From an uncultured cyanobacterium (GTDB taxonomy: Bacteria > Cyanobacteriota > Cyanobacteriia > PCC-6307 > Cyanobiaceae), in contig CAVXWZ010000011.1 of assembly GCA_963765575.1 (NCBI GenBank), forward strand, positions 384,001 through 448,000: a stretch of DNA of 64,000 nucleotides. The letters run 5' to 3'. Each line of letters opens with the position of its first letter. Positions within the stretch are counted from its first letter, which is position 1. Of this stretch, positions 4,572 to 13,974 are shown in pieces. Under the pieces are notes generated by a model. The model worked only from the letters and a program-made list of their open reading frames with translations, did not search any database and was not told the origin of the DNA. A program made the position numbers and the translations under genes.

Positions 4572-5198
4572 ATGATCGCGCCAGCCACCGCGCAGCCCCA
4601 GCCACCACCGGCCCCCACGCCCCGGGCCCCCTCGCCACGGGTCCCCTCGCCACCGGCGCGCTCCTCCGGGCTGGCCACCCAGGCCGACCTGCCGCCCCAG
4701 GCGGTGGAGCGCACCACACGGCTGATTCGCCAGCACCGCGGCCGCGCCGATGCCCTGATCGAGGTGCTGCACCAGGTGCAGGAGCTCTACGGCTACCTGC
4801 CGCCGGGGGCCCTGGCCCAGGTGGCGCGGGAGCTGAAGCTGCCCCTGGCCCGGGTGCACGGGGTGGCCAGCTTCTATCACCTGTTTCGGCTGGACGCCCC
4901 CACCGCCCACCGCTGCGCGGTGTGCCTGGGCACGGCCTGCTTCGTGAAGGGGGGCGGGGATCTGGCCGCCCGCATCGAGCAGCGCCTGGGCCTGCGGCTC
5001 GATGATCCCGCCGGCAACGGCACCTGGGCCCTGGAGCACGTGAGCTGCCTGGGGGCCTGCGGCCAGGCGCCGGTGGTGGTGGTGGACGGCCGGCTGGAAC
5101 CGCGGCTGCCGATGGACGATCCAGCCGCCCTGGACATCCGCCTGGCCGCCCTGGGCCTCACCGCCACGGCGGCCCCTGAACCCGGCGGAGTGAGCTGA
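4572..5198 (+). CDS. hoxE: Bidirectional hydrogenase diaphorase subunit HoxE
   Basis: NuoE-like: [23 protein letters not shown]; first gene of the hox run. Start uncertain (4548 or 4572). Confidence 0.9.
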
Positions 5199-6830
5199 TG
5201 GCTTTCCCAGCCCCATTGCAACTGCGCTGCTGCGCCGCCAGCGGCTGCCGCTCCGCCGGCGCCGAGGCCCTGCAGGCGGCGCTGCTGGCCGCCCGCGACG
5301 AGCTCGGCGGCGCCGCCGAGGCGGTGACGATCAAGCCGGTGGGCTGCCTGCGGCTGTGTGGCCGCGGCCCGCTGGTGGCCCTCGACCGCTCCGAGGGGCA
5401 GGCCCCCGAGCTCTATGCCGAGCTCACCCCCGAGCAGGCCCCCGCCCTGCTGGCCGCGGCCACCGGCATGGCCGACAAGCTGGCCGCGCAGCGCCTCGAT
5501 CCCGGCCATCCCTTCTTCGCCCTGCAGAAGGCGGTGGTGCTGGAGGGCTGCGGGGTGGTGAATCCCGAGTCGATCGACGACGCCCTGGCCCACGGCAGCT
5601 ACGCCCAGCTGCGGCGGGTGCTGCTGGAGTGCAGCCCCGAGCAGGTGCGCGAGCAGGTGAAGCGCAGCGGCCTGCGCGGCCGCGGCGGTGCCGGCTATCC
5701 CACGGGCCTGAAGTGGGACACGGTGGCCCTGCAGCCGCCCGGGCCCCGCACCCTGGTGTGCAACGCCGACGAGGGCGACCCCGGCGCCTTCATGGACCGC
5801 AGCGTGCTGGAGAGCGACCCCCACCGGCTGATCGAGGGCATGGCGATCGCCGCCTACGCCGTCGGCGCCGAACAGGGCTACGTGTATGTGCGGGCCGAAT
5901 ATCCGCTGGCGATCGAGCGCCTGCGCCTGGCCCTGCGGCAGGCCCGCACCAAGGGGCTGCTGGGGGCCCGCATCGCCGGCAGCAGCTTCAACCTGCGCCT
6001 GGAGGTGCGGGTGGGGGCCGGCGCCTATGTGTGTGGTGAGGAAACGGCGCTGCTGGCCTCGATCCAGGGGGGGCGCGGCACGCCCCGGCCGCGGCCGCCG
6101 TTCCCCGCCCAGGTGGGCCTGTGGGGCGCCCCCACCCTGATCAACAACGTGGAGACGCTGGCCTCGATCCCGGTGATCCTGCGCGAGGGCGGCGACTGGT
6201 ATGCCGCCATCGGCACCGAGGGCAGCAAGGGCACCAAGGTGTTCGCCCTTTCCGGGGCGGTGGCCCACACCGGCCTGGTGGAGGTGCCGATGGGCACCAG
6301 CCTGCGCACGGTGGTGCAGACCATCGGCGGCGGCGTGCCCGGCGCCGATGGGCCCGATGGCGGCGTCAAGGCGGTGCAGACCGGCGGCCCCTCCGGGCGG
6401 CTGCATCCCCGCCCATCTGCTCGACACGCCGGTGGACTACGAGAGCCTGCAGGCCCTGGGCTCGATGATGGGTTCGGGCGGTCTGGTGGTGATGGGCGAG
6501 ACCACCTCGATGCCGGAGGTGGCCCGCCACTTCATGCGCTTCAGCGTCAACGAGAGCTGCGGCAAGTGCGTGCCCTGCCGCGCCGGCACCGTGCAGCTGG
6601 CCCTGCTGCTCGACCGCTTCGTGGAGCGGCGGGCAACGCTGGCCGACCTCGGGCGGCTGGAGGAGCTCTGCCGCATGGTGGGCGCCACCAGCCTCTGCGG
6701 CCTGGGCCAGGCGGCCCCCAACCCGGTGCTCAGCACCCTGCGCTACTTCCGGCAGGAGTACCAGGCGGCCTGCCGGGAGCCCGGCGACTGCGAACCCCTC
6801 GATGCCTGCCTGCTGCAGGAGGTGACCTGA
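5198..6830 (+). CDS. hoxF: HoxF diaphorase large subunit (one extra G at ~6395-6397)
   Basis: [31 protein letters not shown]-terminal part ([20 protein letters not shown]) continues in the 6201..6830 frame. Confidence 0.92.
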
Positions 6831-7549
6831 TGAGCGTGCTCACCCTCACGGTGGATGGTGTGGAGGTGGCCGTGCCCGCAGGCGCCTCGCTGCTCGATGC
6901 GGTGCGGGCCGCCGGCGTCGAGCTGCCCACCCTCTGCCATCTCGATGGCCTCAGCCCGGTGGGCGCCTGCCGGCTCTGCCTGGTGGAGCTGGAGGGCAGC
7001 GGCAAGCTGCAGGCCGCCTGCGCCACCGCCGCCGGTGAGGGCGTGGCCGTGCTCACCCAGACGCCCCAGCTGCAGAGCTACCGGCGCATGGCGGTGGAGC
7101 TGTTCTTCGCCGAGGGCAACCACGTGTGCGCCTTCTGCGTGGCCAACGGCAACTGCGAACTGCAGGACGTGGCGGTGGCGGTGGGCATGGATCACTCCCG
7201 CTTCCCTTACCAGTACCCGCAGCGCCGGGTGGACGCCTCCCACGAACGCTTCGCGATCGACCACAACCGCTGCATCCTCTGCACCCGTTGCGTGCGCGTG
7301 TGCGATGAGATTGAGGGCGCCCACGTGTGGGATGTGGCCAGCCGCGGCGCTGACTGCGCGATCATCGCCGGCCTCGACCAGCCCTGGGGCGAGGTGCAGG
7401 CCTGCACCTCCTGCGGCAAGTGCGTGGACGTGTGCCCCACCGGCGCCATCTTCAGCAAGGACGACACCACCGCCGAGAAGGAGGCGCAGCGGGAGCGGCC
7501 CCAGCTGCTGCGCAGCGCCCGCGAACAGAAGCAATGGCTGAACCAATGA
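6830..7549 (+). CDS. hoxU: HoxU Fe-S subunit
   Basis: ATG overlaps the hoxF stop; [37 protein letters not shown]. Confidence 0.93.
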
Positions 7550-8145: not shown

Positions 8146-9606
8146 ATGACCCGCACGATCACGATCGATCCCGTCACCCGCATCGAGGGTCACGCCAAGA
8201 TCACGCTCCACCTCGACGAGGCGGGGCGCCTGGCCGATGCCCGTTTCCACGTGGTGGAGTATCGCGGCTTCGAAACCTTCTGCGAGGGGCGGCCGTTCAC
8301 GGAGATGGCCGGCATCACCGCCCGCATCTGCGGCATCTGTCCGGTGAGCCACCTGTTGGCGGCGGCGAAGACGGGCGACAAGTTGCTGGCGGTGCAGCCG
8401 CCGGCGGCGGCGGTGAAGCTGCGGCGGCTGCTCAACCTGGCCCAGCTCTGCCAGAGCCATGCGCTGTCGTTCTTTCACCTCAGCAGCCCCGATTTCCTGC
8501 TGGGCTGGGAGAGCGATCCGGCTCGCCGCAATGTATTCGGCCTGATGGCCGCCGATCCCGATCTGGCCCGCGCCGGCATCCGCCTGCGCCAGTTTGGCCA
8601 GCAGGTGCTGGAGCTGCTGGGGGGTCGCAAGATTCACTCGGCCTGGGCGGTGCCCGGCGGCGTGCGCACGCCCCTGAGCGCCGAGGCCAGGGAGTGGATC
8701 CTGGAACGCCTGCCCGAGGCCAAGGCCACGGTGGCCACGGCGCTGAAGCTCTACAAAACCCTGCTGGATGGGCCGCTGCAGCGGGAGCAGAGCACCTTCG
8801 GTGACTTCCCCTCGCTGTTCATGGGCCTGGTGGGGCCGGGCGGGCGCTGGGAGTGCATCGACGGCCTGATCCGCTTCACCGACAGCGCCGGCACGGTGGT
8901 GGCCGATGGCCTCTCGGAAGACGACTACGCCAGCTACCTGGGCGAGGCGGTGGAGAGCTGGAGCTACCTGAAGTTTCCGTACTACAAGCCGCTGGGCTAT
9001 CCCGAGGGGATCTACCGGGTGGGGCCCCTGGCGCGGCTGAACGTGTGTGACGCGATCGGCACGCCCTGGGCCGATGCCGAGCTGGCTGAGTTTCGCCAGC
9101 GCAGCGGCACTGCTGAAAGCGGCGGCCGCATCGTGACCTCCTCGTTTGCCTTCCACCACGCCCGGCTGGTGGAGATCGTGGCCTGCCTGGAGGGCATCGA
9201 GCAGCTGGTGGTGGATGACAGCCTGATGAGCGGCCGCATCCGCGCCCGCGCCGACCTCAACGCCAACGAGGCGGTGGGCGTGAGCGAGGCGCCGCGCGGC
9301 ACCCTCTTTCACCACTACTGCGTGGATGACGACGGCCTGATCACCCGCGTGAACCTGATCATCGCCACCGGCCAGAACAACCTGGCCATGAACCGCACGG
9401 TGGCCCAGATCGCCCGCGAATTCATCACCGAGCCAGTAGCCGCTGGCGCCGAGATCCCCGAGCCCCTGCTCAACCGGGTGGAGGCGGGCATCCGCTGCTT
9501 TGATCCCTGCCTGAGCTGCAGCACCCACGCGGCGGGGCAGATGCCGCTGCACATCGAGCTGCGGGATGCTGGTGGGGAGTTGGTGGCGGAGAGGGTGAGG
9601 GATTGA
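8146..9606 (+). CDS. hoxH: HoxH [NiFe]-hydrogenase large subunit (group 3d)
   Basis: [16 protein letters not shown] and DPCLSCSTH Ni-binding motifs with C-terminal extension. Confidence 0.97.
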
Positions 9607-9632
9607 GCGGTGGGGCTGAGGTGTTGATGTGG

Positions 9633-9802
9633 CCTGAACGGTCTTATAAGGGTCCGCCTAAACTGCCAAGGGTTTGATGCGCTTCTCTGAGACCCACTGC
9701 CATGACGGGTTTCCCTGGCGATAGATTCAAGAGTGAGGGGTTTTATGATGCTGGATCCAGGGGATCCGGATTTTATGCGGATCCGCCTAAGCAGCGTTAG
9801 CC
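9633..9802 (+). mobile_element. Long atypical attC-like site (170 bp)
   Basis: CCTGAAC...GTTAGCC ends; inner arms GGGTCCGCCTAAA (9650-9662) and TTTATGCGGATCC (9772-9784) pair with one mismatch and one G-T. Confidence 0.55.
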
Positions 9803-10039
9803 TTACGCAAAGTCCATGCGTCCGGCTGCCCTGAGTTCCGAGCCAGGAGATCAAATAGCCGCTGGAGATCATGTTCGTTTGATTTATTTTGCTTCATTCT
9901 ATTCTGCAAGATTCTGACATTATTAAATATTGTTGTTAGCTCAAAAGTCCCCGAAGATGCCGTATGTGAACCTAAACAAAGCAAGCGGTCGGCTTTGCTC
10001 TAAAGTTCTACTACCCGACGTAGTGCTTTACGCGATGAT

Positions 10040-10240
10040 ATGAAAGTGTCCGAGGTTCTCAAAGCGATCAAGGATGATGGCTGGTTTCAAGTGGCCCAGA
10101 GAGGCAGTCATCGTCAATTTAAGCATCCAAGCAAGCCAGGAAGGGTAACCATTGCTGGCAAGCCGTCCGATGAACTTGCAAGGGGCACTCAGATGAGTAT
10201 CCTGAAGCAAGCAGGTCTCCGAGGTTCAGAACAGCCATGA
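10040..10240 (+). CDS. hicA: HicA mRNA interferase toxin (cassette 1)
   Basis: DGW...RGSHRQFKHP...GRVTI...ILKQAGL. Confidence 0.92.
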   Translation: MKVSEVLKAIKDDGWFQVAQRGSHRQFKHPSKPGRVTIAGKPSDELARGTQMSILKQAGLRGSEQP

Positions 10241-10449
10241 AGTACGCAGTAGTCATTGAGAAGGCTGGAGATAACTTTTCGGCCTACGTGCCAGACCTCC
10301 CAGGCTGTATCGTAACTGGCGATACTGCCTCTGAAGCCGAACAGCAGATACGCGAGGCAATTTCATTTCACTTGGACGGGTTACGGGAGGATGGCATGGA
10401 GATACCCGAGCCGTCTTGTGCCGTTGGTTATGTCGAACTTGCTGCATAA
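10237..10449 (+). CDS. hicB: HicB antitoxin, short form (cassette 1)
   Basis: YAVVIEK...SAYVPDLPGC...EAISFHL; ATGA overlap with hicA. Confidence 0.92.
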   Translation: MKYAVVIEKAGDNFSAYVPDLPGCIVTGDTASEAEQQIREAISFHLDGLREDGMEIPEPSCAVGYVELAA

Positions 10450-10464
10450 CCGAAATGAGGCGAA

Positions 10465-10549
10465 GGCTAACATCCAGATGCAGAAGACGGGAGCAAAATG
10501 CATTGATTATGCCCACACCTCTGCCCGCTTCTGATCTGGAGCGTTAGCC
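10465..10549 (+). mobile_element. Integron attC site (85 bp)
   Basis: R'' GGCTAAC, R' GTTAGCC; left arm TCCAGAT(G)CAGAAG(A)CGGG pairs with CCCGCTTCTGATCTGGA leaving two extrahelical bases. Confidence 0.9.
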
Positions 10550-10595
10550 GAATCTGTGAATGGCGGCGGGCTGAGCGGAGGAACAGGATGCGCTC

Positions 10596-10619
10596 TAGCA
10601 TGTGGGATATTGCTACAGT
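10596..10619 (+). promoter_or_regulatory. Putative cassette-internal promoter/operator
   Basis: Inverted repeat TAGCA-N10-TGCTA overlapping an extended -10-like TGCTACAGT, upstream of the GGAG RBS of hicB. Confidence 0.4.
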
Positions 10620-10640
10620 GTCTTCAAGTCGGAGCTAAAC

Positions 10641-10853
10641 ATGAATTTCACTTTGGAGTGCGAACAAGAAGTAGACGGTCGTTGGATTGCCGAGGTGCCG
10701 GAGCTACCTGGAGTCCTTGCATACGGGAGCTCTTCAACTGATGCAATGTCAAAGGCTGAAGTACTAGCCCTTCGTATTATCGCTGATCGGCTTGAAAATG
10801 GCGAGTCCGAGCCACTCAGCATCCGGTTTTCGCTCCACTCTCTGCATGAGTAA
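10641..10853 (+). CDS. hicB: HicB-family antitoxin (cassette 2)
   Basis: EQEVDGRWIAEVPELPGVLAYG; GGAG RBS before ATG 10641. Confidence 0.88.
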   Translation: MNFTLECEQEVDGRWIAEVPELPGVLAYGSSSTDAMSKAEVLALRIIADRLENGESEPLSIRFSLHSLHE

Positions 10854-11057
10854 CTGGCCTTCAGCCAAAGCCAAGAAATATTAGCAGCCTTGCAGTCCAT
10901 TGGATGGAGAGTTAAGCGTCAGTCAGGATCTCACAAGACGCTTGAACATGCAGACTATCCGGACTATGTCTTTGCATTTCATGATGGCGAGGAGATTGGC
11001 CCCAGGATGTTGTCGCGAATCGCCAAGCACACCGGCCTCGAACCAGGTGATCTGTGA
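10846..11057 (+). pseudogene. hicA: HicA toxin (cassette 2), frameshifted at ~10877 (one A short)
   Basis: Manual translation MSNWPSAKAKK / ILAALQSIGWRVKRQSGSHKTL...FAFHDGEEIGPRMLSRIAKHTGL; absent from the ORF track. Confidence 0.8.
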
Positions 11058-11072
11058 TGCAGGCGGGAAATC

Positions 11073-11162
11073 GGCTAACAATGCCATACACCTGAGCCGC
11101 CCCCTGATGATCTTTGTTGAGCTTCCTGGCTCTTGGCGGCCAGGTGATGGCGAGCGTTAGGC
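11073..11162 (+). mobile_element. Integron attC site (90 bp)
   Basis: R'' GGCTAAC, R' GTTAGGC; GCCAT(A)CACCTG(A)GCCGCC pairs with GGCGGCCAGGTGATGGC leaving two extrahelical bases. Confidence 0.9.
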
Positions 11163-11184
11163 CTCCAAAAAGAGTTCGCCAGCA

Positions 11185-11601
11185 ATGCACCTTCCTTCTG
11201 TGGCCTTGGTCAAAACTATCCACGCCGGCCTCGCTTACTGCGCCATGGTGCTGGGGGCGGGATTTGTTCTCGGCATGGTCAGGGTTCCGTTCCTGGTGCC
11301 ACGCATCGGTGAGCGCTGGGCGGAACTGGCAGAGATGCCCATCATGGCCATGGTGATCTACGTCGCTGCGGGGGTCATCCTTCGCCGCTTTCCAGAGGTT
11401 GGCTCACCGCCGCGAGCTTTGATCGCTGGTCTGCTGGCCTTGGCGCTACTGGTTGTGGCGGAGCTGGCCCTGGCCACGGTGCTGCAGGGCATGGGCCCTG
11501 CAGAGTTGATCGCCAGCCGCGACAAACTGTCGGGTTCGGTCTATCTCGTTCTCCTGATTGTTTTTGCCGTGATGCCAAGGTTGCGATCACCAGCGCCATG
11601 A
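11185..11601 (+). CDS. Uncharacterised 4-TM membrane protein (cassette 3)
   Basis: Starts just after the attC R' site; four hydrophobic segments. Confidence 0.75.
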   Translation: MHLPSVALVKTIHAGLAYCAMVLGAGFVLGMVRVPFLVPRIGERWAELAEMPIMAMVIYVAAGVILRRFPEVGSPPRALIAGLLALALLVVAELALATVLQGMGPAELIASRDKLSGSVYLVLLIVFAVMPRLRSPAP

Positions 11602-11804
11602 CATCAGCTCTCCCCTGCCAGCATGGAGCTGTTCATTGTCCTCTCTTGATCCGCTTTTGGCGAGGAGAGCAATCTGCCAGGGATCTTGAACATTGATCGC
11701 ATCATCGTCTGGCCTGCGTTTCCAGTCGTAGCGTTAGCTCCCTACCAATCAGCTGTCTACCCCCTACACTATCTGGATGCCAAGAGCGAATCCTGTTGCA
11801 TTCC

Positions 11805-13510
11805 ATGCCGTCTCCCTCCACTGTATCGACTGAGCCCCGCGTCACCACATTTGACGACTTTGTGGGATCGGCTGACTATTCATTGATGGATTCCTTGAAT
11901 CCTGATCCTGAGGCCACCGACGATGGCAACGATCACCGCGTGCGCCAGGTGTTCTCCGGTCATTACGTGCCTGTCACGCCCACACCGCTCGCAGACCCCG
12001 AGTACGTGGCCCACAGCAGCACGTTGTTCCGTGAACTCGGCCTGAGCGACGCGCTGGCACAGAACAATGATTTTCTCAGGATCTTTTCGGGCGATCTCTC
12101 GGCCGCCCATGAGCCCATGCGCCCGTTATGGCTGGGCCACGGGTTATGCCCTCTCGATTTACGGCAGTGAATACAACCAGCAGTGCCCTTTCGGCACGGG
12201 CAATGGCTATGGCGATGGCCGGGCGATCTCTGTGTTTGAAGGCGTCTTCGAGGGCCGGCGCTGGGAGATGCAGCTCAAGGGTGCTGGTCCGACCCCCTAT
12301 TGCCGTGGCGGTGATGGCCGTGCCGTGCTGCGCTCCAGCGTGCGCGAGTTTCTGGCGCAGGAGCACATGCACGCCTTGGGGATTCCCACCTCGCGCTCGT
12401 TGACCCTGGTGGTCTCGTCCTCGGAGACCGTGCAGCGACCATGGTATTCGGCCGATTCCCGCTCCCACGACCCCGATGTTCTGGTGCGTGATCCTGTGGC
12501 GATATCCACCCGCGTGGCGCCATCCTTTCTGCGGGTTGGCCAGCTGGAGTTGTTTGCTCGCCGCGTTCGCCGCAATGCGCATCCAGGGGCCTTGGCTGAG
12601 CTACGCATGATCGTGATGCATCTGATGCAGCGAGAGTATGCATCCGATATCGATCCAGGCCTCGCCTTCAGCGATCAATTGGTGGAGCTGGCCGTGGCCT
12701 TTCGTGGGCCGTCTCACTTCCCTGGTGGCCAACTGGCTGCGCGTGGGCTACTGCCAGGGAAATTTCAACAGTGACAACTGCGCCGCCGGTGGCTTCACGC
12801 TCGATTACGGCCCCTTCGGCTTCTGTGAACTCTTCGATCCCGCCTTCCAGCCCTGGACGGGTGGCGGCGATCACTTCGCCTTCTTCAATCAGCCCGTGGC
12901 GGCGGAAGCCAACTTCCACATGTTCTGGACGGCCGTGCGGCCCCTGCTCGTCGATGACGCCGCAGCCCTTGCCCAGTTCGACGCGGTGCGCCAGGGTTTT
13001 GCCGCTGCGATGGAGAGCCAGATCCAGGCGATGTGGGCCACCAAGCTGGGCCTGGCCACCTACGACCCAACCCTCGTCCAGGAGCTGCTGCGGTTGATGG
13101 TGGCGACCAAGCTGGATCTCACCATCTTCTTCCGCGAGCTCTCCCAGCTGCCAAACGACCTTTCAGCTCTGAGCAACAGCTTCTATGCCGCTCCATCAGA
13201 GCCGCTCGCGGCGGCATGGCACGCCTGGTTGCAACGCTGGCGCGACCGCATCGGCAGCCAGGGCGATCTGGCAGACGTTTCCACACAGATGAAACAGGTG
13301 AACCCGAAATACACCTGGCGCGAGTGGCTGGTGGTTCCCGCCTATCAGCAGGCGGCGCAGGGCGACTACGCCCTGGTGAAGGAGCTGCAGCAGGTGCTCA
13401 CCCACCCCTACGACGAGCAATCGCCAGAGATTGAAGCCAAGTTCTACCGGCTCAAGCCTGAGCACGCCTTCAACGCCGGTGGCGTGTCGCACTACAGCTG
13501 CTCATCCTGA
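11805..13510 (+). CDS. selO: SelO/YdiU protein adenylyltransferase (frameshifts at ~12126 and ~12706)
   Basis: [47 protein letters not shown]-terminal SCSS; split across three ORFs. Confidence 0.9.
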
Positions 13511-13545
13511 GCATCGATTCACCCACTGGCCAGGAGCGATCGCTC

Positions 13546-13974
13546 GTGATCGGCATCGGCAACCCCCTGCGCGGCGACGATGGCGTCGGCGCCCTGCTGG
13601 CCGAGTCCGCCGGTGGCCGCTGCGTGCATCAGCTCACGCCCGAGCTGGCTGCCGACCTGGCGCCGTTGCAGCGGCTGTTGTTCATCGATGCCTGGTTGGC
13701 GCCGGGGCAGGCCGGCGAGGCCCCTTCTCCCAGGCTCGACCCCCTGCCCGCCGAGGTCCAGCCCAGCAGCACCTGCAGCAACCACCGCCTCGAACCGGCC
13801 GAGCTGCTGGCGATCACCGCCGCCCTCTACGGCCGCGCCCCCAGCGCCGCCTGGCTGCGGGTGCCCGCCTACGCCTTCGATCACGGCAGCGAACTCTCGG
13901 CGCCGCTGCGCTCATCGCTGCCCGTGGCCCGCCGTCTGCTGCAGCAGTGGCTGGAGGATGGCGCCCATGCATGA
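13546..13974 (+). CDS. hoxW: Hydrogenase maturation protease HoxW
   Basis: IGIGNPLRGDDGVG, HQLTPE, FIDA. Confidence 0.88.
   Translation: MIGIGNPLRGDDGVGALLAESAGGRCVHQLTPELAADLAPLQRLLFIDAWLAPGQAGEAPSPRLDPLPAEVQPSSTCSNHRLEPAELLAITAALYGRAPSAAWLRVPAYAFDHGSELSAPLRSSLPVARRLLQQWLEDGAHA

Follow-up and report, generated by a model that had tools for sequence, protein, structure and literature searches.

A hydrogenase-operon cassette array in a Cyanobium-like picocyanobacterium opens at an attI-type site that lacks an adjacent intI and is probably still loaded in trans

Arrays of attC sites without a nearby integrase gene, known as CALINs, have been discussed as sources of cassettes or as an intermediate on the way to fixation, and their origin and continued activity were left open by the paper that defined them (PMC4889954). 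IntegronFinder limits its attI search to classes 1 to 3 and to exact matches (PMC4889954). attI sites comprise L and R boxes, sometimes with accessory sites, and are generally recognized by the cognate integrase (PMC4792948). In integrons of the Treponema type, intI is co-oriented towards attI, and this type clusters with a Synechococcus intI (PMC3607928). CALINs, the action of integrases in trans, co-oriented integrons, and insertion at attG sites are already in print (PMC4889954, 10.1101/2022.09.11.507474, and 10.1101/2025.06.18.660453). Searches of an open-access library turned up no account of an orphan attI conserved at hox or of multidock integrons in picocyanobacteria, and the accessible portions of PMC2426708, PMC8876359, PMC3108266, and PMC9668308 do not mention orphan attI in cyanobacteria. 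These arrays may figure as CALINs in integron survey tables.

The array described here lies in the window, i.e., the whole 64-kb stretch of DNA that was analyzed, which belongs to a 2.7-Mb genome (G000; other G numbers denote the genomes compared). Because the closest named relatives of its HoxH (84 to 92% identity) are Cyanobium, Synechococcus, and Prochlorococcaceae records, the host is considered a Cyanobium-like picocyanobacterium; identities of hoxH to the full-length congener matches listed range from 90% to 96%. The gene order is hoxE-F-U-Y-H, 3.9 kb of lower-GC DNA, and then hoxW-hypA-hypB-hypF with pyruvate:ferredoxin oxidoreductase, and Pfam and NCBIfam profiles gave HypA, HypB-type, and HypF matches 3' of hoxW. 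The GC content falls from 0.68 to 0.71 within hoxH to 0.46 to 0.53 over 9600-11100, which agrees with the drop that the original prediction had placed just past the hoxH stop. An Rfam scan of the window returned one tRNA and nothing else. One extra base at 6395 shifts the frame of hoxF, the first part of which is fused with hoxU as a single ORF (5198-7549), and this base is absent from three of four metagenome runs and from three related loci. Similar one-base frameshifts occur in selO near 12125 and 12709. Since these single extra bases, mostly in short one-letter runs, are absent from metagenome contigs and congeners, the hoxF and selO frameshifts are likely assembly errors. No sequencing run covers half of the window (best, 0.26), and the four runs compared are DNA contigs of relatives. 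The features of the locus are as follows.

8146..9606, + strand: hoxH, large subunit of the bidirectional [NiFe] hydrogenase, left border of the platform (Pfam NiFeSe_Hases)
9636..9802, + strand: orphan attI platform (alignment to the post-intI region on contig C2; HMM match)
9636-9661, 9743-9753, and 9773-9790, + strand: boxes 1, 2, and 3 of this three-box attI element
9796-9802, + strand: R box GTTAGCC, preceded by a 5-bp spacer and by the likely L box, the 3' half of box 3
9797..10543, + strand: cassette 1, a toxin-antitoxin pair of hicA (10040-10240) and hicB (10237-10449) (Pfam HicA_toxin and HicB_lk_antitox over cut-off)
10465..10549, + strand: attC1, 85 bp (geometric scan and folding)
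10544..11156, + strand: cassette 2, a hicB-like gene (10641-10853) and a second hicA (10846-11057) (HicA over Pfam cut-off; UPF0150 weak, E 0.004)
11073..11162, + strand: attC2, 90 bp (geometric scan and folding)
11157..11733, + strand: cassette 3, a 138-aa hydrophobic protein (11185-11601), without an intact attC (homologues 78 to 79% identical)
11734..13510, + strand: selO (protein adenylyltransferase), an old terminal cassette whose attC is lost (Pfam SelO in two pieces)
13546..13974, + strand: hoxW, hydrogenase maturation protease, right border, followed by hypA, hypB, and hypF (TIGR00072 over cut-off)

The array spans 9797 to about 13510, with two cassettes of HicAB type followed by one for a membrane protein and by selO. 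Both attC sites fold on the bottom strand with paired AAC/GTT triplets and two single extrahelical bases each, with fold z scores of -5.0 (attC1) and -3.6 (attC2) against 150 dinucleotide shuffles. The coordinates, paired arms, and extrahelical bases originally proposed for them were reproduced, whereas the proposed RYYYAAC/GTTRRRY core is slightly overstated, since GGCTAAC and GTTAGCC misfit it at some positions and only the AAC and GTT triplets are invariant. A strict attC scan of the whole 2.7-Mb genome gave six calls, and the four listed include attC1, attC2, and two on contig C2; a loose fold-based scan with 851 calls was uninformative and was dropped. attC2 is about 75% identical to attC sites of the intI-linked and C11 orphan platforms of G000. 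Cassette 1 closes on its own R'', as does cassette 2 (GTTAGCC against GGCTAAC), the latter as first proposed. A 514-nt part of cassette 1 is 82% identical to a cassette within the intI-linked array of G027, and cassette 2, whose second hicA has a one-base frameshift near 10878, is 92% identical to a cassette of the G010 hox array. One metagenome contig matches the window only from 9796 onwards, after 34 foreign letters, and the match of another ends at 11159, and these breaks provide independent support for two cassette borders. A second GTTAG at 9935 has a one-base mismatch to the R'' of cassette 1 and coincides with no metagenome contig break, and it was set aside as chance or a remnant.

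The protein of cassette 3 matched no Pfam or NCBIfam family; its gene is also the last before hoxW in G007, G012, and G016. A third attC was sought after it, but the tail does not fold (z 0.4). The original prediction of an integrase-less array between hoxH and hoxW was correct, but its end at 11601 was placed too early: because selO starts with a GTTAG junction of its own at 11733, the point from which homology to the selO locus of congener G016 extends, the array reaches about 13510. selO is last before hoxW in G019 too. In G016 and G012 (loci L046 and L047), selO lies 2.6 kb past hoxW and is preceded by a decayed attI-like core, so a second dock may exist inside the hox-hyp cluster.

The array had been described as having no visible attI, whereas an attI-type element is present at 9636-9802. 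This segment aligns with the 170 bp behind the intI of contig C2, and an HMM trained on 24 post-intI regions alone found it at an E value of 2e-4 genome-wide. In G000, the same model found the element at four places, including two further intI-less copies (C2:555694 and C11:664048), and across genomes it detected the element behind hoxH at 18 of 20 loci (E<=0.01); the hox elements of G028 and G009 were missed by it and found by a hox-trained model. Across 12 hox attIs, identity is 83% in the 36 columns that 20 intI-linked sites conserve and 48% in 88 variable columns, a result that exceeds each of 2,000 randomly drawn column sets; the comparison is based on a joint alignment and thus not fully independent. 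The crossover is predicted to fall between 9796 and 9797, so that an attI with a GTT crossover precedes the first cassette, as in a complete integron, and the three boxes are predicted to bind IntI. By eye, the three boxes resemble each other and appear to vary with the clade of the adjacent IntI. At locus L170, the hox attI is shortened, with box 1 joined almost directly to the core, and a methyltransferase-like gene comes next. As for a Pc promoter that would drive the cassettes, no sigma-70 match was found on the + strand over 9500-13700 by a scan that covers not all cyanobacterial promoter types and performs at chance level.

To place the element in its lineage, 31 congeners were searched, 24 of which gave a HoxH match at E<=1e-100; with two matches at contig edges, 23 loci including that of G000 were readable. 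attI follows hoxH in 21 of these 23 genomes, and in the other 2 (G017 and G030) hoxW adjoins hoxH without attI. At every occurrence the element is co-oriented with hoxH and lies 1 to 100 bp past its stop. The comparison of the hoxH-hoxW interval suggested by the original prediction thus revealed a shared attI followed by first cassettes that differ nearly always. Likewise, the chimeric join that was looked for at the insert border left no sign, and the hoxH-attI junction recurs in independent genomes. The separation of hoxH from hoxW by the array is real, but it is ordinary rather than notable, as hoxW lies elsewhere than hoxH in 26 genomes versus 20 in which they are clustered (PMC5186783). 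In the 12 complete intervals, the gap between the two genes is 2.1 to 17 kb. That of G002 measures 14,087 bp without an attC call, and a degenerate second hoxH 3' end (residues 443-477, 66%) lies inside it about 10 kb past hoxH (L053).

In a wider set of 153 loci with a readable hoxH 3' end (3 more lacked the hoxH end, and some duplicate records were counted), attI follows hoxH at 26 of 36 loci with at least 88% HoxH identity, at 2 of 27 with 76 to 88%, and at 0 of 89 below, the more distant cyanobacteria lacking it. None of the 153 loci was found to contain an intact intI, and when the hoxH-attI spacers of 20 genomes were searched for remnants of the intI 3' end, the matches listed were to the boxes only. 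In a hoxH DNA tree of 58 rows, which leaves out short rows, the most distant rows, and two duplicates, 25 attI rows fall within one 35-row clade (100/99), the basal empty rows having hoxH and hoxW adjacent. Empty sites are also present inside this clade. The simplest reading is a gain of attI with several losses, but a single origin is not established, because the attI state takes six changes on the tree, three of them forced. Recombination at the locus is indicated by G026 and G007, whose near-identical hoxH genes carry quite different attI spacers.

The original prediction that the window contains no intI was borne out, and the search for an integrase elsewhere that it called for was successful. 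An intact IntI is encoded at C2:324905-325840 of G000 (464 bits versus a cut-off of 265), stop-free and with the catalytic-region motifs. Apart from a short intI fragment on C1, TIGR02249 and tblastn searches found no other full intI in G000 and nothing significant on C11. The C2 intI points towards its own cassettes, of which mazEF is the first. In the genus, thirty intI loci form nine upstream-context clusters. A short motif containing GGCAAC, which may be a promoter, an operator, or an element end, precedes nearly every intI start by 20 to 40 bp (L001 and L061-L090), whatever gene lies upstream.

attI-like sites are more numerous than integrases. A model based on sequence alone and trained on 34 elements gave 142 matches (E<=1e-5; 0 to 18 per genome) in 22 genomes of at least 95% completeness, compared with 36 intI matches, partial ones counted; orphan attIs outnumber intI by about 4:1, and some attIs sit as close pairs. 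Ten genomes of other genera yielded one weak match (E 0.008). Of 22 sites retrieved at a distance from hox and from any intact intI, 4 have a broken intI just upstream, and most show a GC drop and downstream attC. The further docks of G000 lie behind an NYN-domain gene (C2:555694-557900, L091; also in G002 and G019) and behind a nitroreductase gene (C11:664048-665760, L092), and the first cassette of the latter (DUF4160/DUF2442) resembles the first hox cassette of G007. Other docks follow amylase and oxidoreductase genes. The hox site is hence one of several orphan attIs per genome and is kept across the lineage, which contradicts the earlier view of an attI-less cluster or one-off insertion. 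At L183, a locus from a metagenome, hoxH occurs with an intI that carries an internal deletion, with a decayed attI, and with a downstream gene; this attI is of another subtype and may represent a separate insertion.

Several patterns point to cassette turnover at these sites. First cassettes are unrelated in 105 of 105 pairs of 15 hox platforms (maximum 52% identity), even where the attIs are 86 to 91% identical; G008, outside this set, has its first cassette in common with G012. By established integron logic, insertion at attI should leave, behind the crossover, bases complementary to the R'' of the cassette's own attC. This closure was scored at 59 platforms, 43 of which had an attC call (a further 5 were excluded because matches were partial or absent), and a 6/6 match was observed at 32 of the 43, whereas shuffled pairings averaged 3.4 and never exceeded 11 in 20,000 trials. 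By class, closure was found at 8 of 11 hox, 11 of 14 intI-linked, 3 of 4 intI-remnant, and 10 of 14 orphan platforms. Of five further hox loci, G026 showed a closure match and G002, G005, G008, and G027 had no attC call, which brings exact first-cassette closure to 9 of 12 hox sites with an attC call. In the complete genome of G012, the hox attI shares an identical 135-nt gene-less cassette (135/135) with another intI-less attI, the neighbours being different, and in G008 the copies of this cassette at the hox and intI-linked sites agree over 74/74 letters, as far as the contig reaches. At six docks of three genomes (L019, L020, L062, L067, L128, and L130), the first cassette is a gene-less one of about 135 nt, which may be a promoter cassette. 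Identical cassettes within one genome could also arise via gene conversion. The attI beside the sole detected intI of G012 (L073) is interrupted by an apparent transposase gene, and the orphan docks of G012 hold identical cassettes. An attC call is missing from 5 of the 12 complete hoxH-hoxW intervals (scan background, 8 calls in 60 kb on both strands), so that many arrays are decayed or filled with other mobile DNA.

Taken together, the array probably opens at an attI fixed behind hoxH, likely left by loss of intI and likely still loaded in trans by an IntI encoded elsewhere. An intI-attI unit, likely of the co-oriented type, would have inserted between hoxH and hoxW in an ancestor of the Cyanobium-like lineage, after which intI would have been deleted while the three IntI-type boxes were retained. 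An IntI made elsewhere would then bind the orphan attI and insert circular cassettes at G|TT, displacing older cassettes (the membrane gene and selO) towards hoxW, where attC would be lost, and the HicAB cassettes would stabilize the array. Loading activity at the hox attI is thus deduced from comparative sequence evidence. The scattered docks suggest that one enzyme loads several of them in these genomes. By extension, though with less confidence, we favor a distributed integron, in which one to three integrases would serve a network of intI-less attIs (up to 18 attI-like sites per genome) behind ordinary genes, the hoxH dock being lineage-wide. Cross-talk could be limited, because attI recognition is generally cognate and the hox boxes, which differ from the attI beside the G000 intI, cross-score only 23 bits against it. 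No intI was found in G022, though its hox attI is kept.

A static relic of intI loss, at which no docking occurs now and where species differences predate the loss or reflect homologous recombination, appears rather improbable. intI-less remnants are treated as static in PMC3607928, the distal cassettes lack attC and five complete intervals lack an attC call, and recombination is evident from the unlike attI spacers beside near-identical hoxH genes; such a relic, however, would not be expected to show boxes conserved without intI, exact closure of the first cassette at most hox sites with an attC call, or, as in G012, one and the same cassette flanked by different neighbours at two docks that lack intI. 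It is unlikely, too, that the dock is kept since read-through from hox expresses its cassettes under dark or anoxic conditions, a proposal that goes back to the co-transcription suggested in the original prediction and is compatible with the trans-loaded orphan attI. The constant orientation and proximity of attI to hoxH fit it, as does a co-oriented Pfam-named gene within 200 bp at 8 of 18 other orphan sites (10 upstream ORFs scanned), but the cargo has no common theme, docks also follow NYN, nitroreductase, amylase, and oxidoreductase genes, the clade includes empty sites, and a terminator-like hairpin lies at 9751-9769, although terminator counts are at chance level.

The orphan attI preferred here might instead have arrived without intI, as a module mobile by itself like a cassette. 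The excess of orphan attIs over intI and their close pairs would suit such mobility, and attI-bounded cassettes recombine in class 1 integrons (PMC12901181). We consider it very unlikely, since the element has no attC-like fold when examined as a hairpin (z -0.1), a GTT heptamer matching its left AAC heptamer is present upstream in 0 of 16 hox loci, and several orphans are preceded by intI remnants. Least credible, and very nearly dismissible, is a chance genomic (attG) site behind hoxH that was seeded by cassettes and then grew by attC x attC recombination. IntI does insert cassettes at many genomic sites, a proposed source of small CALINs (10.1101/2022.09.11.507474), but the junction here is preceded by a three-box element of 165 bp, which is homologous to the attI regions behind intI and is missing from empty sites. 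The insertion point is therefore not unrelated to attI, as it would be in an attG-seeded SALIN or CALIN.

If the distributed-integron reading is true, many CALINs would be live landing pads whose attI went unrecognized. Complete integrons, sites with a broken intI, and orphan attIs form a series in this genus, which bears footprints of ongoing loading and supplies a defined site of 165 bp that is amenable to direct test. In these picocyanobacteria, the hoxH-hoxW junction forms a variable island of 2 to 17 kb, which might serve as a natural docking site for engineering them. No new link to hydrogen metabolism is demonstrated, and the link to the hydrogenase is most likely positional, not functional.

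By definition, the array is a CALIN and not a complete integron, having at least two clustered attC sites (from our geometric scan and folding), no intI or intI pseudogene nearby, and an integrase elsewhere in the genome, but it differs from CALINs in keeping an attI and in appearing to gain new cassettes at position one. The layout of Treponema-type integrons recurs in the complete C2 integron of G000, to whose attI region the hox attI is homologous; the hox locus, in contrast, has no intI, and the genus combines nine upstream contexts of intI with many intI-less attIs. Like the CALINs of Xanthomonas away from the ilvD integron (10.1101/2025.06.18.660453), the hox dock occupies a fixed position across species with intI elsewhere, whereas the accessible text on Xanthomonas reports no attI and reads those arrays as ancestral activity, and the hox dock has both attI and cassette turnover. 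As in attG insertion and SALINs (10.1101/2022.09.11.507474), IntI would act in trans outside its own platform, but attG is unlike attI in sequence and structure, and the hox site is an attI homologue.
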